Positions 56,895 to 64,000 of a stretch of DNA of 64,000 bases are shown piece after piece. The DNA lies in contig DASURA010000369.1 of the NCBI GenBank assembly GCA_036280295.1, forward strand, positions 1,341 through 65,340, given 5' to 3'. The translations under genes were made by a program, and so were the position numbers. Within the stretch, counting starts at the first letter, position 1; each line of letters starts with the position of its first letter. Below the pieces are notes generated by a model. That model had not been told where the DNA came from and did not search any database. It was given only the letters and a program-made list of their open reading frames with translations. This stretch comes from Hyphomicrobiaceae bacterium. Its GTDB lineage: Bacteria > Pseudomonadota > Alphaproteobacteria > Rhizobiales > Hyphomicrobiaceae.

Positions 56895-57940
56895 TCATGA
56901 TGTGTCGATCCTGGTGGTCGGGGCATGGCGTGGCCGGCAGCCTGCCTCGAAGGTCTCGATGACGATCATGCGCCCGCCGCAGCAGGGACACGGGGTGGCG
57001 AGCACCGATTGAGGTCCGTCATCGGTGGGCGCCTCGTCCTCGGGATCGGTGGCGGCGACCTCAGAAGCTCACGCGCCTGGGCGAGGTTCTCCTCGCGGGT
57101 GCCGCCGGCGAGGAGGCCGTAGTGGCGGATGCGGTGGAAGCCCTTGGGCAGGACGTGGATGATGAAGCGGCGGATGAACTCGTCGACCGCGACGGTCATG
57201 GTGGTGTAGCGGCTTGGCCCCTCGACCCGGTAGTCCTTGACCTTGAAGGTGACGCTCTCCGCATCGGCGGCGATCAGGCGACTGTTGGAGATGGCGACGC
57301 GGTGGGTGTAGCGCGCCAGGTAGGCGAGCACGGCCTTGGGACCGGCGAACGGGCGCTTGGAGTAGACGAACCAGCGCGTTCTCTTGAGCGGCGCCAGGAA
57401 GGCGGCGAAGGCCTTGGTGTCGGCGAGGTGGGCATGCGCGCCAAAGAAGGCGAGCTTGCCGGCCTGGTGGGCGGCGGCGAGCTTCTCCAGCATCAGGCGC
57501 CGGAACAGCCTGGAGAGCACCAGCACGGGCAGGAAGAAGTTGGGCTTGGCAGCGATCCGGCGTTTGCCGTCGGGCGAGACGCCGCCGCCCGGCACGATCA
57601 TGTGCACGTGCGGGTGATGCGTCATGGCCGACCCCCAGGTGTGCAGCACCGCCGTGATGGCGATGCGGGCGCCGAGGTGCTTGGGATCGGAGGCAATGGT
57701 CAGCATGGTCTCGGCCGCGGCCTTGAACAGCAGGTCGTAGATCGCCTTCTTGTTCTGGTAGGCGATATCACCAATCGCCGCCGGCAGCGTGAAGACGATG
57801 TGGAAGTAGGGCACGGGCAAGAGCTCGGCCTGCCGCTCCTCCATCCACTCTCTCGCCGCGGCGCCCTGGCACTTGGGGCAGTGCCGATTGCGGCAGCTGT
57901 TGTAGGCGATGGTGGTATGGGCGCAGTCCTCGCAGCGCTT
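56895..57940 (-). mobile_element. IS91-family transposase remnant (5'-truncated, one frameshift)
   Basis: YNSCRNRHCPKCQ zinc-finger motif, HUH region HTWGSAMTHHPHVHMIVPGGG, catalytic-Tyr region YLARYTHRVAISN. The first 50 or so codons are missing: homology starts at RCEDCAHTT near 57937. A frameshift near 57065 is needed to reach the conserved C-terminus CPCCGGRMIVIETFEAG...IDTS, with stop at 56895. The element end may extend to about 56490. Confidence 0.85.
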
Positions 57941-58890
57941 CCGAAGACTGGGCCGATCGAGGTCTGGATGAGCGCTCCATCCCTTCGCTGCAAGAACAAC
58001 GCGTCGAGACCCTCTCTTTGTGCAAGCACCTTGCCTTCCACGGGACCGAGTACCATGAGCGCTGTGGCCCAAGCATCTGCATCCATGCAGCTAGCGGCAA
58101 CGACTGAAACTGACGCGATTCCGTTGTCGACTGGACCGCCGCGCGACCGGTCCATTGTGTGGGCCAGGCGCTTTCCTCCGAGATCGACCCAGTGCCGATA
58201 GTCGCCCGAGGTCGCAACCGCGGCGTCCCGCAACTCAATCACGCCGAGCGGACTCCGCAGCTCGTAGTCGGGCCTTTCCACCGCCACGAGCCACGGTGTT
58301 CCGTCTGCCTTGGCGCCTCGCGCTTTAAGCTCTCCATCGAGACTGACCAGCGCACTGGAGATGCCGAAGGTCTCAACCGCACGCATCATCTCGTCCACGG
58401 CGAAGCCTTTGGCGATGCCCGAAAGGTCGAGCGCGAAATGGGCATGCTTGCGCGCACGCCTTCCGGGTACATCCAGTTCAAGAACAGTATGGGTTGGTAG
58501 CAGCCGCTCGCGAAGGGCAGCCAGAATCGCTTCCTTGTCGGGCGCGGAACGAGCGGCTCCGAAGCCCCAAGCATTGACCAGGCCTCCCAGGCCGATGTCA
58601 AAGGCTCCGCCCGAGGCGTGCCCGAACTGCAACCCCCGCTGGAGAACCTGCATGAGCTCGGCAGGCAAGGATACCCAGGCGCCCGGCGACGCCGCATTGA
58701 AGCGCATCAGATCGCTGTCGGACTTCCATGTGGACATCTGGCGGTCCACGCGGTCGACGGCGCGAGCTAATGCGGCTTCCAGCGCGGCGATATCGATCGC
58801 TGGCGACGCATAGAGCAGCGCCGACCACCGCGTTCCCATGGTGGCCCCGCTCATTGCATGACGAAGGAGGTCAGTAGACATCTTCGGCAT
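57700..58890 (-). CDS. apbE: FAD:protein FMN transferase ApbE, native 3' end replaced by IS91-derived sequence
   Basis: ApbE-like from MSGATMGTRW... through ...ADAWATALMVLGPVEG...LFLQRRDGALIQTSIGPVF (about 310 aa, to about 57960). The ORF then runs a further 85 or so codons out of frame through the transposase remnant. Start is 58890 or 58881. No obvious signal peptide. Confidence 0.8.
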   Translation of the reverse strand: MPKMSTDLLRHAMSGATMGTRWSALLYASPAIDIAALEAALARAVDRVDRQMSTWKSDSDLMRFNAASPGAWVSLPAELMQVLQRGLQFGHASGGAFDIGLGGLVNAWGFGAARSAPDKEAILAALRERLLPTHTVLELDVPGRRARKHAHFALDLSGIAKGFAVDEMMRAVETFGISSALVSLDGELKARGAKADGTPWLVAVERPDYELRSPLGVIELRDAAVATSGDYRHWVDLGGKRLAHTMDRSRGGPVDNGIASVSVVAASCMDADAWATALMVLGPVEGKVLAQREGLDALFLQRRDGALIQTSIGPVFGSAARTAPIPPSPTTAAAIGTAPSARAPRRESGWRSGRPSSCPCPTSTSSSRCRRRLVISPTRTRRRSTTCCSRPRPRPC

Positions 58891-61090
58891 ACCTTCCTTG
58901 GGCTTTGAGCGCGAAGGGCGTCAGGCCGATCGGCGCCAACACATCGACCATCGCCTGCATGACGCCCGCCGCCATGTCGCGCCCGCCGCAAACCATAACC
59001 TGTGCCCCGTTGGCTATGAGAGCGCGTAGGCGATCAGCATCCCTACGCAGACAATCCTGCACATAGCCGCCGCCTTTCACGCGCGAGAAGACGGTAGCGA
59101 GGCTCGTCAGCCGCCTGTCATCCAGCCAGCCGGCAATCTCGCGCCCATAGAGAAAATCCGAGTCTGGATCGCGCCCGCCGAAATAGAGATGCATGGGCCT
59201 GCGCGCGACGTTGGCGCGAATGAATCCCGCCAGCGGGCCAACGCCAGTGCCAGCGCCGATCAGGATCACCGGTTTTGATGCACGTGCCGGACGAAAAACC
59301 GGGTTCACCTTCACGAAGGCCTCGGCGCTGTCGCCCGGCCGAAGACCGTGAAGCATGCCGGAGCAAAGCCCGCCCGGATGCTTGCGCACGCATATCTCGA
59401 CGAAGCCGTCACGAGTCGAACTGGCCAACGAGTAGTAGCGAGGCAAGCTGCAGTCCGGCGGCACAACTGCAATCAGGTCGCCTGCGGCGAAGCGCGGCCA
59501 GCCGTGCCCTGCGAGGCGCGCGAAGACGCCGCTCCTGGGCAGCGCGAAGCGCAGGACGCAGGTCGGCGCCTGGACCTCCGCACCGTAATCAATGCGCTCG
59601 ATAAGCGTTAGTGTGTGAGTACGCGGCCGCTCCGACACATGGGTCAGGACCAGCTTTTCACCCATGACATCCGACACGGTCTCACCCCATCGCGCGAACT
59701 CCTGCCCAGACTGGCGGTCGATGGTCTCCAGCGGCATCAGCGACGCCCAGCCTTTCCGCACCAGAGCCGATTCGACATCACGGGCGAATTGGCAGAATTG
59801 CGGAAATTGACGATCGCCGAAGCCGAGGACCGCGACCGGGAAAGGCGGTGGATCGCTGATCCCGTCGAGGCGTTTGAGGAATGCGCTGGCTGTTGCTGGA
59901 GCCGCGCCGTCACCATAGGTCGCGGTCAGCACGAACATGCGCCGCGCCGACGGATAGGATCGCAACAAGCTGTCCATCGGGGCGGCGTGAACTCTGTGGC
60001 CGTTGGACGTCAGGGCTGCGTGCAACGTGCGGGCAAAGCCCCATGTGCTGCCGCCTTCGCTCCCGACCAGGATCACGGTGTCGGCGCTCTTGGCGGGAAC
60101 GTTGTCGGCGATTGGAGCGCGAGTACGTCGCCCGCTCCACCACATCGCAGCGCCGCTCAAGCCGAGCACTGGAACGCTGAGGGCGCTGACGCCGAGCAGC
60201 AGGCCGAGCCACCAGAGCCCTTGGCCGGTGTGCAGCATGTAGATGAATTCATAGATCTGCTGGGCCGCCGAATGCGCCTGCCAAGCCAACATCTCTCCGC
60301 TCGCTGGGTCGACATAGCCCTCGCCGGCAGCGCTGGTCACGTGGAAGAGGTCATTCGGATTCGCCGGGTTGGGAAAAGTCAGCTCGCGCAGCTGCGAAAG
60401 ATCGATGCCGCGCAAAGCCTCGATTTGCTCGACCGGAAGAGCCTCGCCGCGGGTCGTCACCGTCGGGAGAGCGGGCCCCTGCGACGTGCCGTCCGGAATT
60501 AGTCCGAACGTCGTGAGCGACAGGTAGAGCGCCGTCACCGTCGACAGGAGCAGTCCGAAAACTGCTAACCGGCCCACTTCGGCATGCAGCCGCTGCATGC
60601 CATCGCCCCGCGCGCGACCGAGAATGTGCCGCCATCCTCCCATGCGCCGGGCGGTCATTTGCAGTCCGGACAGCGTCAGGACAAGCATTGCAAGCGCGCC
60701 AACGGCAGCGGCCATCCGTCCGCTATCGCCCAGAAAGAACGAACGATGCAGGTTGGTCATCCAGCGTTCGAACGCCGAGCGCACGTAGTCCGAAACCGGT
60801 CTGCCGCCGGAAGGATCCACCACGCTCGCCGCCGGGCCGTCATTCCCGGAGTAGAAGGCAATGACCTTGCCGGAGGGCAGCCGCTTGAGCTCCTCTACTC
60901 CGGGATAGGTATTGACGACTCGGCCAGCCAAGTCGGCGACGCTAACGCCCTCTGCGGGAAGCGAAACCGCTCCGGCTCTCTCCCAGGCCGGCATCACCGA
61001 CAGCACCGATCCGCTGATGACGAGCGCCATCAGCGGAAGGAGGACGGAAAGGGCCAGGACCTTATGAATCCAGCGCATCATGACATCCAT
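58871..61090 (-). CDS. PepSY-associated TM protein fused to flavodoxin-like and FAD/NAD(P)H (FNR-like) reductase domains
   Basis: 739 aa. N-terminal PepSY_TM-type helices (WIHKVLALSVLLPLMALVISG, MAAAVGALAMLVLTLSGL, LAVFGLLLSTVTALYL, WWLGLLLGVSALSVPVLGL). Flavodoxin-like VILVGSEGGSTWGFA. FNR-like RYYSLASS, GGLCSG, ILIGAGTGVGPLAGF, C-terminal YAEDVY. Confidence 0.88.
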   Translation of the reverse strand: MDVMMRWIHKVLALSVLLPLMALVISGSVLSVMPAWERAGAVSLPAEGVSVADLAGRVVNTYPGVEELKRLPSGKVIAFYSGNDGPAASVVDPSGGRPVSDYVRSAFERWMTNLHRSFFLGDSGRMAAAVGALAMLVLTLSGLQMTARRMGGWRHILGRARGDGMQRLHAEVGRLAVFGLLLSTVTALYLSLTTFGLIPDGTSQGPALPTVTTRGEALPVEQIEALRGIDLSQLRELTFPNPANPNDLFHVTSAAGEGYVDPASGEMLAWQAHSAAQQIYEFIYMLHTGQGLWWLGLLLGVSALSVPVLGLSGAAMWWSGRRTRAPIADNVPAKSADTVILVGSEGGSTWGFARTLHAALTSNGHRVHAAPMDSLLRSYPSARRMFVLTATYGDGAAPATASAFLKRLDGISDPPPFPVAVLGFGDRQFPQFCQFARDVESALVRKGWASLMPLETIDRQSGQEFARWGETVSDVMGEKLVLTHVSERPRTHTLTLIERIDYGAEVQAPTCVLRFALPRSGVFARLAGHGWPRFAAGDLIAVVPPDCSLPRYYSLASSTRDGFVEICVRKHPGGLCSGMLHGLRPGDSAEAFVKVNPVFRPARASKPVILIGAGTGVGPLAGFIRANVARRPMHLYFGGRDPDSDFLYGREIAGWLDDRRLTSLATVFSRVKGGGYVQDCLRRDADRLRALIANGAQVMVCGGRDMAAGVMQAMVDVLAPIGLTPFALKAQGRYAEDVY

Positions 61091-61104: not shown

Positions 61105-61575
61105 CTACATGTCGTAGGTGAAGGAGCTGATGTAGCTGCGCCCCGCCACGGGCCGGCCTGCCCCTGCGGACGACAACGGAACGACCACTTCGGACGGGCT
61201 GTCCCGCATGTCCTCTACGGCGGCGTCGATGTGGAGCTTGTAGCCTGCATCGAAGAGCGCGTCCGCGAGGTCGAGCGTGACTGTCAGTGTGCGGCCGGCT
61301 CCGACGCTGGCGCCTGTGATGCCGTTGATGTCGGAGAGGGTTCCACGAGATCCGCGGTTCCAGCCGCTGAGGTGGCTATAATATTTGGACTTGGAGCCCG
61401 CCATCCACAGCGTGCCTTTGTAGGCGCCAGTCGCGTCGGTCACGTAAAGGGCCAGATACGCGCCGTTCCCGCCATAGTTCTTGAGCGTTGTGGTCAGCGT
61501 GACAGGACGCGCCATGGCGGGTCCGGGAGCGGCCAGCGCGGTCGTTACAGCAAGGGCGGCAAGCAGTGATTTCAT
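61105..61575 (-). CDS. Secreted DUF2271-family protein with an ApbE-type flavinylation motif
   Basis: 156 aa. Signal peptide MKSLLAALAVTTALAAPGPAMA. Motif DINGITGAS (nt 61306-61317 encode TGAS). GGAGA RBS. Confidence 0.85.
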   Translation of the reverse strand: MKSLLAALAVTTALAAPGPAMARPVTLTTTLKNYGGNGAYLALYVTDATGAYKGTLWMAGSKSKYYSHLSGWNRGSRGTLSDINGITGASVGAGRTLTVTLDLADALFDAGYKLHIDAAVEDMRDSPSEVVVPLSSAGAGRPVAGRSYISSFTYDM

Positions 61576-61626
61576 TTTTTGTCTCCAGCGGTGGCGTATC
61601 GATCGCGCCGAAACTGAAGACCGCGG

Positions 61627-61675
61627 CTGACGTATTCCTGAAGGCTGACAGGATTCTGCTTCAGGTCACTGTCAG
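61627..61675. promoter_or_regulatory. 49-bp composite operator (site 1) upstream of the DUF2271 operon
   Basis: CTGACgtattCCTGAAG-N15-CTTCAGGtcactGTCAG. The centre lies 76 nt upstream of ATG 61575. An extra CTGAAG half-site is at 61614-61619. Confidence 0.65.
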
Positions 61676-61837
61676 CTTGGCGCTATTTGAAAACGAAAAC
61701 GCCCGCACGAGGCGGGGCGCGCATGAAGGCGATGTGCTGTTCGTTCAGCTCAGGTAGCGTATGTCAGTCGCACCGATGCCGACGCCTTGTGTCCTCTGAT
61801 GATGGCCTCCGATGAAACGCATTCCACACCAAGGACC

Positions 61838-62260
61838 TCACTTGACTTCGACTCTAGGGGCCGCACCGCCCTGAAAAAGCCCGTTGGGAGGCGGCGCTAC
61901 TGTTGGCGCTGGCGCTGCCCCCTGTCCCGACCGTTCGCCTGCCCGGCTTCTGTCTTCCTCATCGTCATGGTCCCTGCCGTGCTCTCCCTGCTTGTACTTC
62001 ACGCGAATCACAGCGAGGGACGCAGGATCCACCTTTACCTTGATGGCACGGCCGTTCTCGTCTTGCCCTCTAATCTCGTAGCATCCGTCGTCGATCTTGA
62101 TTCTGTGCACGGTCCAGCCACGCGCCTTTGCCATTTGTTCGACTGCTTCGCGCGGCTGCCACTGGGCCATGGGAACCTTGCAGTCGTCATCGTCGGCCAC
62201 CGCCATGCCGGGCGCTAGCGCGCCCAGCAGAATGGCAGCAATCAATACCGCCCTTTTCAC
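61838..62260 (-). CDS. Periplasmic PepSY-domain protein
   Basis: 140 aa, GTG start with AGGAG RBS. Signal peptide MKRAVLIAAILLGALAPGMAVA. PepSY-like core (AVEQMAKARGWTVHRIKIDDGCYEIRGQDENGRAIKVKVDPASL). Acidic/His-rich tail. Confidence 0.8.
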   Translation of the reverse strand: MKRAVLIAAILLGALAPGMAVADDDDCKVPMAQWQPREAVEQMAKARGWTVHRIKIDDGCYEIRGQDENGRAIKVKVDPASLAVIRVKYKQGEHGRDHDDEEDRSRAGERSGQGAAPAPTVAPPPNGLFQGGAAPRVEVK

Positions 62261-62311
62261 GTTCTCCTGCTCCCGTTCGAAGCTAACCTATCTTCCTTTT
62301 GAGCCAATTTC

Positions 62312-62360
62312 CTGACGGCGACCTGAAGACGCTGCGGCTTTTGCTTCAGGTCAACGTCAG
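62312..62360. promoter_or_regulatory. 49-bp composite operator (site 2) between the PepSY gene and the response-regulator gene
   Basis: CTGACggcgaCCTGAAG-N15-CTTCAGGtcaacGTCAG. The centre is 76 nt upstream of the PepSY GTG at 62260 and 85 nt upstream of the RR ATG at 62421. Confidence 0.65.
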
Positions 62361-62420
62361 GTTCTCCTCTATGATTACCTATGAGCGGGACAGGCAATTG
62401 GGGGCGGGCGGAATGAGACG

Positions 62421-63083
62421 ATGCGGATATTGCTGATTGAAGACGACACCATTCTGGGCGCGGCCGTGCGCGACCAGATCGTGTCCGACGGACACTCCGT
62501 CGACTGGGTTACCCGGCTTGATGCCGCGTGGGACCATCTTAGCAGCACCGCCTACGACCTGCTTCTCCTGGATCTGATGCTGCCGGACGGTCGCGGTATC
62601 GGACTCCTACGCGCCCTACGCGCCAAGGGTGACGTCACCCCGGTCATCATTCTAACGGCGCTCGATCAACTATCCGATCGCATCGAGGGGCTCAACGCCG
62701 GTGCAGACGATTACATGATTAAACCCTTCGATCTTTCGGAACTTTCATCGCGGCTGAATGCCGTCGCGCGCCGCTATTCCGGTAATCCGAATCCCCTTGT
62801 CCGGGTCGGTGCTCTGCAGATCGATCTGGCCGCTCGCTCGATCACCCGTGCAGGAAAGAACATTCCTCTGACGGCACGGGAATGGGTGCTGCTCGAAATT
62901 TTCGTGCAGCGCCCGCGTCAGGTCATGTCAAGGGCGATTCTTGAGGAACGACTCTACTCATTTGGCGAGGAGGTCGAGAGCAACACCATCGAGGTGCACA
63001 TCAGTCGGCTTCGCAAGAAGCTTGGACATGCCATCATTGAGACCGTGCGTGGCCTCGGTTACCGGCTGGGAAGCGCCTCATGA
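62421..63083 (+). CDS. OmpR/PhoB-family response regulator
   Basis: 220 aa. Receiver domain (MRILLIEDD, LLLLDLMLPDG, ADDYMIKPF) and winged-helix output (LTAREWVLLEIF..., IETVRGLGYRL). Confidence 0.95.
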   Translation: MRILLIEDDTILGAAVRDQIVSDGHSVDWVTRLDAAWDHLSSTAYDLLLLDLMLPDGRGIGLLRALRAKGDVTPVIILTALDQLSDRIEGLNAGADDYMIKPFDLSELSSRLNAVARRYSGNPNPLVRVGALQIDLAARSITRAGKNIPLTAREWVLLEIFVQRPRQVMSRAILEERLYSFGEEVESNTIEVHISRLRKKLGHAIIETVRGLGYRLGSAS

Positions 63084-64000
63084 AAAGGCCGCGTAGCCTG
63101 CAGTGGCGGATCGCACTGTGGCTCGGGCTCGGCGTCGCGCTCCTCTGGATCATCGCAGCCGTCGTGACAGCTCAAAGGCTGCGTCACGAGATGGACGAGG
63201 TGTTCGATAGCGCGCTTGAGGAAACTGCCCAGCGGATTCTTCCGCTTGCGGTGCTCGATATCCTCGGCCGTGAGGCAGGCGACACGTCTCAACGTATCGC
63301 GACGCTGAGGCAGCACGACGAGTACTTTACTTATGTGGTGCGGGACGAGCGCGGGTCCGTACTGGTGCGCTCGCACAGCGCCAACGACGCCATCTTCCCT
63401 CCCTTCTCCAGAATGGGTTTTACCGACACGCCAACCCACAGGATCTACTTTGACGCTGCGCTGCAAGGCACGGTGACGATCGCAGTGGCGGAGCCGCTCG
63501 CGCACCGCCGCGAGGTCGCGAACGAGGCACTCCTCGGGCTTGCCTGGCCGCTGGGATTGCTTATTCCCCTCAGCCTTCTTGCCGTCTGGGGCGTCGTGCG
63601 CGTCTCGATGACGCCGGTCAGGAGCCTGCGGAGAGGTATTGAAGCACGCGGCACTGGCGATCTGTCGCCGGTTCCGGCCGCAGGCCTGCCCTCCGAGATC
63701 AGGCCGCTTGCTGACGCCGTGAACAACCTGTTGGAGAGCCTTCGGCGCGCCCTGGAAGCTGAGCGGAGCTTCGCCGCCAATTCCGCGCATGAGCTACGTA
63801 CACCGATCGCCGCCGCGCTGGCGCAGACACAACGGCTCATCGACGAGACCAAAGACACCGCGGCGCGAACGCGGGCACAGCAGATCGAGACGGCGCTGCG
63901 GCGGCTTTCGCGGCTGTCTGAAAAGTTGATGCAACTCGCAAAGGCAGAGGGCGGACGCCTTCAGGACAGGGAGACGACCGACATCGCATCTGTCCTGAAA
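63080..64000 (+). CDS. Sensor histidine kinase (partial, runs off the window end)
   Basis: My own translation from ATG 63080 (ATGA overlap with the RR stop): MKRPRSLQWRIALWLGLGVALLWIIAAVV..., a second TM (LAWPLGLLIPLSLLAVWGVV), a HAMP-like region, and H-box FAANSAHELRTPIA. Open to position 64000. Confidence 0.88.
   Translation, partial: MKRPRSLQWRIALWLGLGVALLWIIAAVVTAQRLRHEMDEVFDSALEETAQRILPLAVLDILGREAGDTSQRIATLRQHDEYFTYVVRDERGSVLVRSHSANDAIFPPFSRMGFTDTPTHRIYFDAALQGTVTIAVAEPLAHRREVANEALLGLAWPLGLLIPLSLLAVWGVVRVSMTPVRSLRRGIEARGTGDLSPVPAAGLPSEIRPLADAVNNLLESLRRALEAERSFAANSAHELRTPIAAALAQTQRLIDETKDTAARTRAQQIETALRRLSRLSEKLMQLAKAEGGRLQDRETTDIASVLK

Follow-up and report, generated by a model that had tools for sequence, protein, structure and literature searches.

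A conserved four-box element as candidate operator of a PmrA/QseB-like two-component system beside a PepSY gene and a DUF2271 flavin operon in Alphaproteobacteria

Introduction

In PhoB-dependent promoters the -35 element gives way to a pho box, a 17-18 bp pair of direct repeats whose end is ~10 bp upstream of the -10 element; several such boxes can work jointly, arranged in tandem with the same orientation. Head-to-tail binding by PhoB is mentioned in PMC3973317, which describes the binding of PmrA as a head-to-tail dimer to a hexamer-N5-hexamer box and the activation of transcription from it; in Enterobacteria this PmrA box reads CTTAAG-N5-xTTAAT (PDB 4s04/4s05, 8jo2). For BqsR, the box is TTAAG-N6-TTAAG and overlaps the -35 element; the phosphorylated protein switches on the operon that encodes it (PMC4358008). 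PMC12714742 identifies PA2658/PA2659 of BqsRS/CarRS as PepSY proteins, describes for DbfQRS of Vibrio cholerae a small secreted PepSY protein that binds the sensor domain of the kinase and sets its activity in a module that positively autoregulates, and reports PepSY-TCS neighbourhoods, divergent ones included, to be widespread; we know of no operator motif from that account for DbfQRS.

Thousands of genomes encode clusters of DUF2271, PepSY-like and ApbE proteins, whose role in physiology is yet to be settled (PMC8238504). DUF2271 carries the flavinylation motif [S/T]GA[S/T] (Meheust et al. 2021, PMC8238504), and in Shewanella and Caulobacter PepSY-like flavinylation clusters are regulated by Fur (PMC8238504). 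Both the PepSY-plus-two-component module (BqsRS, DbfQRS) and the flavinylation module are already known, while in the literature we found no account of the regulator orthogroup described here, of its motif or of paired inverted arms, nor of two-component control of a DUF2271 operon.

Results

The window, by which we mean the whole 64-kb stretch of DNA analysed, contains two 49-bp elements next to an OmpR-type two-component system (Table 1). The initial annotation had described them as duplicates with 17-bp inverted arms and a 15-nt spacer, and a direct read of the letters bears this out: Site 1 is CTGACGTATTCCTGAAG-GCTGACAGGATTCTG-CTTCAGGTCACTGTCAG and Site 2 is CTGACGGCGACCTGAAG-ACGCTGCGGCTTTTG-CTTCAGGTCAACGTCAG, with CTGAC-N5-CCTGAAG-N15-CTTCAGG-N5-GTCAG as their common pattern. 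Their placement also agrees with that annotation, as the coordinates put both centres (61651 for Site 1, 62336 for Site 2) 76 nt from a minus-strand start codon, at 61575 for DUF2271 and at 62260 for PepSY_2, and the Site 2 centre 85 nt from the start of the divergent regulator gene at 62421. The flanking sequences, held to be unrelated, mostly are so, except for a C-A dinucleotide that both have 11-12 nt beyond their gene-proximal edge; it hardly varies among orthologous loci and probably belongs to a -10 element. With up to three mismatches allowed, the full pattern occurs at Sites 1 and 2 and nowhere else in the 64-kb window, and had no match in 100 shuffles; the inner pair CCTGAAG-N15-CTTCAGG, with up to two mismatches, gave three matches against 0.14 expected. 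Each arm contains, as CTGACG-N5-CTGAAG, the two short direct repeats of 10-11 bp period that mark OmpR/PhoB operators. This 11-bp geometry, pointed out at the outset, fits the hexamer-N5-hexamer PmrA box (PMC3973317), and it is kept in 116 unique sites among the matches listed.

Table 1. Four-box sites, predicted promoter elements and genes of the cluster in the window
Feature	Position	Strand	Description
Site 1 (class B), four-box operator candidate	61627..61675		49 bp, upstream of DUF2271 / PepSY_TM-FNR / apbE operon; exact pattern match
Site 1 operon-proximal arm	61627..61643		CTGACG-N5-CTGAAG, direct repeats 11 bp apart; predicted stand-in for -35 element
Site 1 distal arm	61659..61675		Inverted copy of Site 1 proximal arm
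Site 2 (class A), four-box operator candidate	62312..62360		49 bp, divergent PepSY_2 / regulator intergenic region; exact pattern match
Site 2 PepSY_2-proximal arm	62312..62328		Edge 51 nt from PepSY_2 start
Site 2 regulator-proximal arm	62344..62360		Edge 60 nt from regulator start
Weak -10, DUF2271 operon (predicted)	61611..61616	-	CAGTTT, 10 bp from arm
Weak -10, PepSY_2 (predicted)	62296..62301	-	CAAAAG
-10, regulator/kinase operon (predicted)	62370..62375	+	TATGAT, 9 nt from Site 2
Rho-independent terminator after PepSY_2	61700..61716	-	Terminator scan; parts PepSY_2 from DUF2271 operon promoter
ApbE (FAD:protein FMN transferase)	57943..58890	-	Pfam PF02424
PepSY_TM-flavodoxin-FNR fusion, membrane electron-transfer protein	58871..61090	-	Pfam PF03929, PF00258, PF00175
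DUF2271 periplasmic protein	61105..61575	-	Pfam PF10029; flavinylation motif TGAS (ITGASVG in translation)
PepSY_2, small secreted protein, 140 aa	61838..62260	-	Pfam PF13670, E = 4.8e-28; signal peptide by inspection
Response regulator, OmpR/PhoB family, PmrA/QseB-like subgroup	62421..63083	+	Pfam Response_reg + Trans_reg_C
Sensor histidine kinase	63080..64000	+	2CSK_N periplasmic domain + HAMP + HisKA (Pfam); runs off window end

The response regulator has a predicted phospho-acceptor at D51, and its best PDB matches, BasR/PmrA (3e-43), are its closest solved relatives. With 209.7 bits against a cut-off of 330 for the NCBIfam PmrA equivalog it is not a PmrA orthologue, and it likewise scores 200 against 345 for QseB and 196.7 against 250 for RppA. 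Full-length orthologues of the kinase measure 441-446 aa and conserve a periplasmic stretch, EMDEVFDSAL, that holds an ExxE motif. We considered this motif as an iron-binding site like the RExxE of BqsS or the ExxE of PmrB but draw no support for a metal signal from it, as the stretch looks like a generic 2CSK_N feature such as that of QseC. The locus has the hallmark of PepSY-TCS, the gene for a small, secreted, single-domain PepSY protein no more than a few genes from kinase and regulator; a PepSY gene beside the regulator is kept in 106-110 of 120 loci among the matches listed, and PepSY_2 is a candidate periplasmic partner of the kinase. ApbE, a DUF2271 protein with the [S/T]GA[S/T] motif and PepSY_TM are united in one cluster, the combination that defines PepSY-like flavinylation, with the PepSY_TM fusion comprising PepSY_TM, Flavodoxin_1 and NAD_binding_1 domains by Pfam. 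In the window, an IS91-family insertion has taken the place of the last ~19 codons of apbE: homology to its Bradyrhizobium orthologue stops at residue 316 of 335, and IS91 similarity spans 57700-57941. A megablast search of the cluster against a plasmid collection matched the IS91 element only, and thus revealed no close DNA relative in that collection.

Compared with PmrA/BasR, each arm has the same hexamer-N5-hexamer form and 11-bp period, with a single base change between CTTAAG and CTGAAG; the locus departs from that system in its box sequence, in that two boxes are paired in inverted orientation across a fixed ~15-bp spacer, and in that control is predicted to reach a PepSY protein and a flavin redox operon rather than LPS-modification genes. 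The pho box differs in a similar way, the second box here being inverted across a 15-bp gap. With BqsRS/CarRS of Pseudomonas aeruginosa (bqsPQRST) the locus shares an OmpR-family regulator, a kinase, a small PepSY protein and an 11-bp direct repeat. The pentamer-N6-pentamer box that the initial annotation gave for BqsRS is indeed TTAAG-N6-TTAAG (PMC4358008), whereas the boxes here are CTGAC/CTGAAG, with the 11-bp period in common. BqsR moreover uses a single direct-repeat box and not a four-box palindrome, its PepSY genes share a transcript with the two-component genes while PepSY_2 is divergent, its regulon is broad (cationic stress, Fe2+) where this one appears local, and BqsRS has no DUF2271/ApbE module. 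In DbfQRS (PMC12714742) too, a gene for a small secreted PepSY protein adjoins the two-component genes, but the output there is the biofilm lifecycle, whereas here it is predicted to be the adjacent flavin electron-transfer operon. The PepSY-like flavinylation clusters of Meheust et al. share ApbE, DUF2271 with [S/T]GA[S/T] and PepSY_TM with the present one; they differ in that the control reported for them is by Fur, where a dedicated two-component system is predicted here, and in that PepSY_TM here is fused to flavodoxin and FNR domains. Two Caulobacter systems were rejected as identities, UzcRS since the UzcR motif, CATTAC-N6-TTAA, differs and UrpRS since nothing links it to PepSY or to the four-box motif; literature on Bradyrhizobium NnrR and Mesorhizobium goitrin was set aside as its PepSY proteins are unrelated.

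A scan of one genome per GTDB species with the DNA pattern alone, demanding all four boxes, returned at least 120 loci with at least 152 sites, almost all in Alphaproteobacteria; most of the sample is Rhodobacterales, and sites were dereplicated at 85% identity. Among the matches listed, about 149 of 152 sites lie inside a cluster of OmpR-type regulator, kinase, PepSY, DUF2271, PepSY_TM-flavodoxin-FNR and ApbE genes: for 146 a core cluster protein is encoded within 3 kb, a further four have PepSY or cytochrome b genes nearby, and only ~3 are outliers. Cluster genes directly flank 139 of these 152 sites, and most of the rest are upstream of a small secreted protein that precedes DUF2271 (for 13 unclassified sites, reading frames were picked by third-position GC). 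The regulators beside the sites almost always belong to one orthogroup (57-90% identity), and the motif is present in one to three copies per genome at fixed promoter positions of the cluster, again among the matches listed. With the motif at the same promoters in Bradyrhizobium, in Mesorhizobium and in plasmid clusters of Rhodobacterales, the four-box arrangement is conserved across Alphaproteobacteria. As so few of the listed sites are outliers, the motif is not common genome-wide, and the earlier proposal of a self-contained regulon fits this near-exclusive association. The regulon may nevertheless be larger than it appears, because the scan covered four-box sites, with its counts as lower bounds, and any single-arm targets would add to them.

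Within the cluster, the sites fall into two positional classes among the matches listed: the divergent PepSY_2/regulator layout (class A) was found by pattern alone in ~75 loci, dereplicated or not, and the class B position is occupied in 76 of the 77 loci for which the region upstream of DUF2271 is available. On the effector side the distance from site edge to start codon has its mode at 51 nt, the value seen in 21 of 36 aligned PepSY_2 orthologues, while the regulator start of orthologues is 38-66 nt away (median 45 nt; 60 nt in the window). Arms occur almost only as inverted pairs, with spacers of 15 nt in 136 sites, 16 nt in 21 and 14 nt in three of the matches listed; exact arms that stand alone mostly trace to one chance match within the coding sequence of a ferric-reductase-like gene, shared by near-identical plasmids. 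A single arm is present in the regulator/PepSY intergenic region of two loci, L018 and L079, so the palindrome is not absolutely required; that these are non-divergent layouts was ruled out, as both have a divergent PepSY gene. In class B, the consensus is kept in the distal arm of 40-42 of 42 dereplicated sites, and the proximal arm is in most other taxa a weaker variant, CTGAGs..CCTGACG.

A promoter scan of the region found no sigma-70 consensus promoter or -35 element. Conservation outlines putative weak -10 elements at a set distance from the arms: C11-A12 and T16 are conserved in class B sites (n=42; A in 100%), C11-A12 on the PepSY_2 side of class A sites (n=55; A in 98%), and, on the regulator side, an A that 91% of sites have 12 nt from their edge (11 nt in the window). 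Beyond the CA..T motif, which spans 11-16 nt from the arm, come another CA (22-23) and, at ~31-38, a Shine-Dalgarno sequence. On this basis transcription is predicted to start near 61603-61604 for the DUF2271 operon, near 62289 for PepSY_2 and near 62382-62383 for the regulator/kinase operon. An arm ~10 bp before a predicted weak -10 element, with no -35 element, would fit the layout of class II activators such as PhoB, PmrA and BqsR, and autoregulation of the regulator gene is plausible because the regulator-proximal arm keeps a conserved distance from a -10-like element. In class B sites of Rhodobacterales an arm-like CTGAGGACAATCTGGAG, 24 bp promoter-proximal of the site, overlaps the predicted -10 stretch; this "third arm" may be no more than the -10 and start region (CCAGATTG...CA), and because of the resemblance the predicted -10 stretch could instead be an extra binding site. 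Terminator hairpins equivalent to the one after PepSY_2 are present in loci L003 and L005.

Discussion

We put at roughly 0.75 the probability that both 49-bp elements are operators of the adjacent PmrA/QseB-like regulator, through which it would activate the neighbouring promoters. The predicted targets, most likely switched on, are the regulator's own gene, the periplasmic PepSY protein and the periplasmic flavin electron-transfer operon. Each 17-bp arm would bind one phosphorylated regulator dimer head-to-tail, and the arm nearest the gene, its end ~10 bp short of a predicted weak -10 element (CAnnTT), would stand in place of the missing -35 element; once bound there, the dimer would recruit RNA polymerase in the class II manner of PhoB, PmrA/BasR and BqsR. 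Between PepSY_2 and the regulator gene, a single operator would serve two back-to-back promoters, with PepSY_2 reading leftward and regulator-kinase rightward, and Site 2 would thereby confer positive autoregulation on the regulator-kinase genes. At the DUF2271 operon the distal arm is kept though no gene faces it, and the consensus sequence of the distal arm in most taxa, next to a weaker proximal arm, suggests that the distal dimer may anchor the complex and cooperatively load the proximal one. The regulon would be essentially local, consisting of kinase and regulator, PepSY protein and flavin module; PepSY_2 would probably modulate the kinase, as DbfQ does, and the effector would be NAD(P)H-to-periplasm flavin electron transfer by the PepSY_TM-flavodoxin-FNR fusion, flavinylated DUF2271 and ApbE. 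The sequence architecture, its conservation, its position and, among the matches listed, its near-exclusive tie to the cluster are what the analysis shows; we infer from sequence the binding protein, activation by its binding, cooperativity between the arms and the signal alike, and metal or redox as the inducing signal is a guess.

A more demanding model, doubtful when its two parts are taken jointly, combines an obligate dimer-of-dimers operator acting as a sharp switch with a closed sensor-effector loop. Two regulator dimers would sit head-to-head on the same helix face, the box centres being 11, 22 and 11 bp apart, and the consensus distal arm would load a deliberately weak proximal arm to produce the sharp switch, while PepSY_2 would report a substrate or product of the flavin module, e.g. 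a reduced metal, to the kinase. To our knowledge, no dimer-of-dimers mode has been described for PmrA/QseB-type regulators.

The regulator might also bind the same sites but repress, or both repress and activate, for example by holding the promoters off until it is dephosphorylated or by limiting its own synthesis. Such a role would suit the proximity of the proximal arm to the predicted -10 element (~10 bp), the overlap of the Rhodobacterales arm-like element with the -10 and start region predicted for the DUF2271 operon, and the regulator-side TATGAT of the window, just 9 nt from the site. We nonetheless consider repression improbable: as is typical of promoters that need an activator, neither a -35 element nor a sigma-70 consensus is present, the distance from arm to predicted -10 element is that of pho-box and PmrA-type class II activation, and the characterised analogues BqsR (PMC4358008) and DbfR (PMC12714742) activate their own operons.

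Activation by the neighbouring regulator has also to be weighed against two readings in which the two-component genes play no part. The dyad symmetry CTGAAG-N15-CTTCAG would suit a symmetric dimer or tetramer, and Fur controls DUF2271/PepSY-like clusters in other bacteria (PMC8238504), so that the elements could be operators of another dimeric transcription factor, e.g. a global iron/redox regulator, beside which the two-component genes are incidental. Little weight falls to this possibility, as among the matches listed the sites found by pattern alone almost always adjoin this one regulator orthogroup (57-90% identity), and direct repeats with an 11-bp period within each arm are a signature of the OmpR/PhoB family. 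Nor do we know of any resemblance of the four-box motif to Fur, Irr or RirA boxes. Hardly credible, finally, is a structured nucleic acid, be it a transcript hairpin, an attenuator/terminator or a REP/MITE-like repeat. The arms can pair, with DNA folding energies of -9 and -13.5 kcal/mol (z-scores -2.6 and -4.1), and Site 1 lies downstream of the PepSY_2 gene; however, across the 116 unique sites among the matches listed, unconstrained mirrored positions pair at chance rate and there is no compensatory change, a separate canonical terminator already follows PepSY_2, no Rfam family matches either element, and one to three copies per genome at fixed promoter positions, among those same matches, are unlike REP or MITE. 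What is conserved is the box sequence rather than the pairing, and because the spacers vary without covarying, the four-box element would be a protein site and the hairpin reading is largely refuted.

A dedicated two-component system with a sharply defined candidate operator would offer an experimental entry to the role of DUF2271 clusters, in that a promoter-reporter fusion could reveal the inducing signal and a phosphomimic regulator could turn the module on at will. The locus would enlarge the emerging group of two-component systems partnered by PepSY proteins (BqsRS, DbfQRS) by a well-conserved case, with an operator layout unusual for the OmpR/PhoB family, in which two PmrA-like boxes, inverted, would serve two back-to-back promoters and the paired layout is retained even with one promoter only. 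Should the closed loop between PepSY_2 and the flavin module be real, it would give a first handle on the purpose of DUF2271/PepSY-like electron-transfer systems.

The cluster is also found on conjugative repABC plasmids of marine Rhodobacterales, adjoining a heavy-metal P-type ATPase, a location that makes it a possible component of a mobile toolkit against metal or redox stress.

A four-box element at two promoters of a PepSY-partnered two-component cluster

The initial annotation had described two sites of shared architecture at matching distances from start codons, and direct reading of the sequence bore this out. Site 1, of class B, precedes the DUF2271 operon, and site 2, of class A, lies between the PepSY_2 gene and the divergent regulator gene; both centres are 76 nt from a minus-strand start codon (61575 and 62260, respectively), and the regulator start at 62421 is 85 nt from the centre of site 2. 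Allowing up to three mismatches, the full pattern matched just these two sites within the 64-kb window and gave no match in 100 dinucleotide-preserving shuffles of it, while the inner pair alone, at up to two mismatches, matched three times in the window versus 0.14 expected. A canonical rho-independent terminator on the minus strand separates PepSY_2 from site 1, which thus occupies its own promoter region, and the spacing of the box centres by 11, 22, and 11 bp places all four boxes on one helix face. Conservation, position, geometry, and specificity together support the overall reading first proposed, a sensor kinase and regulator controlling a PepSY protein and a flavin redox module, with the element as the putative PmrA-like operator of this PepSY-partnered two-component system.

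Features of the window cluster and of loci from other genomes and plasmids
Feature	Location	Strand	Detail
Site 1	61627-61675		CTGACGTATTCCTGAAG / GCTGACAGGATTCTG / CTTCAGGTCACTGTCAG; centre 61651
Site 2	62312-62360		CTGACGGCGACCTGAAG / ACGCTGCGGCTTTTG / CTTCAGGTCAACGTCAG; centre 62336
ApbE	57700-58890	-	Pfam
PepSY_TM + flavodoxin + FNR fusion	58871-61090	-	Pfam
DUF2271	61105-61575	-	Pfam
PepSY_2	61838-62260	-	Pfam
OmpR-type regulator	62421-63083	+	Pfam
2CSK_N/HAMP/HisKA kinase	63080 to window end	+	Pfam
Kinase conserved stretch incl. EMDEVFDSAL	63170-63215		kinase residues ~31-46
IS91-family transposase gene	56966-58072
IS91-related DNA	57700-57942
Terminator	61700-61716	-	canonical, rho-independent
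Predicted -10, DUF2271 operon	61611-61616	-	inference
Predicted -10, PepSY_2	62296-62301	-	inference
Predicted -10, regulator operon	62370-62375	+	TATGAT
Third CTGAAG box	61614-61619
Spacer ATTCTG	61653-61658
Single PepSY-proximal arms	L018 1772-1788; L079 2766-2782		Hyphomicrobiales MAGs
Paracoccus sp. match	L023 3548-3596
Bacillota MAG match	L043 1046-1095
Accessory redox genes, e.g. cytochrome b561-like (Ni_hydr_CYTB)	L005 6938-7468; L005 1648-3000; L001 5196-6581 (region set)
Module on repABC plasmids	L001 1-943; L002 1-943 (Celeribacter and Salipiger plasmids)

The window cluster shares 82.5-83.8% DNA identity with Bradyrhizobium loci, which makes its source probably a related member of that group. 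An IS91-family transposase gene adjoins it. The match between the window apbE and its Bradyrhizobium orthologue stops at residue 316 of 335, where the gene runs into IS91-related DNA, so that the insertion has taken the place of the last ~19 codons; the flavinylating enzyme of this copy may be impaired.

The element is conserved in orthologous clusters and nearly confined to them

Close relatives of the regulator are numerous and share 87-90% identity in Bradyrhizobium, about 83-85% in Reyranella and Mesorhizobium, and 76% on conjugative repABC plasmids of marine Rhodobacterales. All fetched loci (Celeribacter and Salipiger plasmids, Bradyrhizobium oligotrophicum, and Mesorhizobium qingshengii) have a core layout in which a small PepSY gene, divergent from regulator and kinase, precedes DUF2271, PepSY_TM-flavodoxin-FNR, and ApbE. 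Some loci additionally encode a cytochrome b561-like protein or a ferric-reductase-like FAD/NAD protein, both of which are missing from the window cluster. The sites proved to be conserved at the same promoters, as every fetched locus carries the four-box element both between the divergent genes and ahead of the DUF2271 operon, where in Rhodobacterales a second small secreted protein is encoded between the site and DUF2271. The pentamer/hexamer boxes are conserved across these loci and the N5 and N15 stretches vary freely. Distances to the start codons are conserved as well. On the effector side, the site edge lies at a modal distance of 51 nt from the start codon (21 of 36 well-aligned PepSY starts), as it does at both window sites; on the regulator side, the median distance between edge and start codon is 45 nt (range 38-66), compared with 60 nt in the window.

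Exact arms were found paired and inverted with spacers of 15 nt (136), 16 nt (21), or 14 nt (3) and almost never alone, the solitary ones occurring at about the chance rate or representing one recurrent coding-sequence coincidence. Where 900 nt upstream of DUF2271 was available, 76 of 77 loci had a four-box site with at most two mismatches, a count in which perfect matches pool class A and class B sites, and none had a one-arm-only DUF2271 promoter; 12 loci brought into the set by their class A site carry a class B site that departs from the pattern at a single position. As rare exceptions, two loci from Hyphomicrobiales MAGs (L018 and L079) have a single arm, the PepSY-proximal one, between regulator and PepSY genes and keep the full four-box site before the DUF2271 operon, suggesting that the regulator gene may not be autoregulated in these genomes.

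Whether the motif is common genome-wide without positional bias, a check proposed by the initial annotation, was addressed by scanning one genome per GTDB species (596 Gb) with CTGAS-N6-CTGAMG-N14-16-CKTCAG-N6-STCAG, for which we calculated a chance expectation of about 1.6 matches assuming equal base frequencies. This revealed at least 152 sites in at least 120 loci, nearly all from Alphaproteobacteria, with Rhodobacterales, Hyphomicrobiales, Phenylobacterium, Reyranella, Iodidimonas, and Geminicoccaceae among the matches listed. A homologue of the regulator, PepSY, DUF2271, cytochrome b, or ferric-reductase-like protein directly flanks 139 of the 152 listed sites, and most of the other 13 are upstream of a poorly conserved small secreted protein preceding DUF2271. 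By a second count, a core cluster protein lies within 3 kb of 146 of the 152, and four further listed sites have PepSY or cytochrome b genes nearby. The motif is thus a marker of this cluster, with the cluster regulator nearly always alongside, and not a common genomic word.

Real outliers among the matches listed number three, which is what chance predicts: loci from an Ilumatobacteraceae member (L010), a Paracoccus sp. (L023), and a Bacillota MAG (L043). The Paracoccus site is a good four-box match, intergenic and far from any cluster gene, ~270 nt from a gene for a secreted RTX-like protein and at least ~180 nt from another gene, which leaves two readings, a match by chance and a rare member of the regulon beyond the cluster. 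The Bacillota match, ~700 nt from an ApbE homologue (31% identity), is a 50-nt perfect palindrome in which the within-arm spacers are complementary too; it has the look of a true hairpin or terminator and was rejected as an operator in favour of a chance pattern match.

The system is mobile. In marine Rhodobacterales the module resides on conjugative repABC plasmids, directly beside a heavy-metal translocating P-type ATPase and near repABC, and it recurs on more than 30 Pseudosulfitobacter plasmids that are near-identical and come from diatom cultures. In about 41 of the 120 loci listed, the small PepSY gene and the cytochrome b561-like gene are co-transcribed, and a Ferric_reduct/FAD/NAD 'ferredoxin reductase family' membrane protein occurs in about 15 of them.

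The adjacent regulator as candidate binder of the boxes

We also considered whether the inverted arms form the stem of a structured RNA. Folding energies are modest and follow from the boxes themselves, Rfam returned no family match for the element, and in 116 unique sites the unconstrained mirrored positions (6-11 versus 39-44 and 18-24 versus 26-32) were complementary at exactly the shuffled-column rate. This chance-rate pairing indicates selection on the box sequences instead of a stem.

The closest solved relatives of the regulator are BasR/PmrA (8jo2 and 4s04, E = 3e-43), and its best NCBIfam scores, against PmrA, QseB, and RppA, fall far below each cut-off (PmrA 209.7 versus 330); by sequence it belongs to an unnamed orthogroup of the PmrA/QseB/RppA subfamily. 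Activated PmrA binds its box, CTTAAG-N5-xTTAAT, as a head-to-tail dimer (PMC3973317). The arms of the present element, CTGACG-N5-CTGAAG, share this hexamer-N5-hexamer geometry and are related to the PmrA box in sequence, in agreement with the OmpR-type direct repeats originally noted within the arms. Given this likeness, and because motif and regulator gene co-occur near-exclusively, the adjacent regulator is much the strongest candidate for binding the element.

In the divergent region, it makes functional sense for each arm to be the promoter-proximal box of one of two back-to-back promoters. On the distal side of the DUF2271-operon site there is no gene and no conserved -10-like signal, yet the distal arm is retained and is the better arm in most taxa, with CTGAC as outer box in 42/42 class B sites and CTGAAG as inner box in 40/42 versus CTGAG in 31/42 and CTGACG in 34/42 for the operon-proximal arm. 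Consensus boxes in both class B arms, as seen in the window and in its relatives from Bradyrhizobium and Mesorhizobium, are unusual. The simplest reading is cooperative loading, in which a dimer on the strong distal arm would help a second dimer onto the weak proximal arm, where it would contact RNA polymerase. Class B spacers read TTyCyG at positions 27-32, directly before the distal inner box (ATTCTG in the window), and have G at position 25 in 69%; the TTyCyG may provide an extended contact, introduce a bend, or act as an UP-like element.

Predicted promoter geometry

Flank profiles were built from sets dereplicated at 85% identity, counting from the site edge in the direction of each gene. 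Position 12 carries A in 98% of PepSY-facing flanks, 91% of regulator-facing flanks, and 100% of flanks on the DUF2271-operon side, usually with C before it at position 11. DUF2271-operon sites give the clearest profile: T follows at positions 15-16 (64% and 81%), then CA at 22-23 and AAGGAGA at about 31-38, and the start codon falls around 46-51. At the two class A promoters, strong conservation is limited to A12, joined by C11 on the PepSY side. The pattern is that of a probable weak -10 element (CAnnTT) with a start ~23 nt from the edge and a leader of ~28 nt. As a consensus scan of 61500-62500 found no sigma-70 consensus promoter, the proximal 17-bp arm would end ~10 bp upstream of the -10 and cover the position of the absent -35, much like pho boxes, which end ~10 bp before the -10 and occupy the absent -35. 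Its predicted position is also that of the BqsR box, which overlaps the -35 element according to transcription-start mapping and from which phosphorylated BqsR activates (PMC4358008).

On the promoter-proximal side of the site 1 inner box, at a start-to-start distance of 24 bp, there is a third CTGAAG box, and Rhodobacterales have a whole arm-like element, CTGAGGACAATCTGGAG, at this position. The third box overlaps the predicted -10 element; it may serve the regulator as an additional site, perhaps in feedback repression, or may be no more than the -10 and start region.

Effector module, PepSY partner, and signal

The effector operon is of the 'PepSY-like' flavinylation type, in which ApbE attaches FMN to DUF2271 at an [S/T]GA[S/T] motif and a PepSY_TM membrane protein is the partner (Meheust et al., PMC8238504). 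The motif in the window DUF2271 is TGAS, and the window PepSY_TM protein is fused to flavodoxin and FNR domains; the system would transfer electrons from NAD(P)H into the periplasm. Such PepSY-like clusters have been tied to iron reduction, with Fur control cited in Shewanella and Caulobacter (PMC8238504), and the literature searched contained no DUF2271 operon linked to a two-component system. PepSY-partnered two-component systems are already known as a kind: according to one report (PMC12714742), the well-studied DbfQ of Vibrio cholerae binds the DbfS sensor domain and sets DbfS activity, its operon autoregulates positively, and PepSY-TCS neighbourhoods, divergent ones included, are >60-fold enriched across bacteria. 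Like DbfQ as described there, the small PepSY protein here is encoded beside a kinase gene. The alphaproteobacterial orthogroup, the operator sequence with its four-box layout, and the coupling to a flavin module all appear to be undescribed. The element is chiefly of value as a clean and testable way into what DUF2271/PepSY-like electron-transfer systems do, and its paired-inverted box architecture is itself unusual.

The kinase periplasmic domain begins with a stretch, LRxEMDEVFDSALxETAQRILPLAV, that is nearly invariant in 80 distinct orthologues and contains ExxE. Judged by QseC, EMDEVFDSAL looks more like a general 2CSK_N feature than a specific iron site, and the ExxE stretch may likewise be generic and not a ligand site. 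Circumstantial hints of metal or redox stress as the signal come from the heavy-metal P-type ATPase neighbour on Rhodobacterales plasmids and from the cytochrome b561-like and ferric-reductase-like genes, which in many loci are inserted between PepSY and DUF2271.
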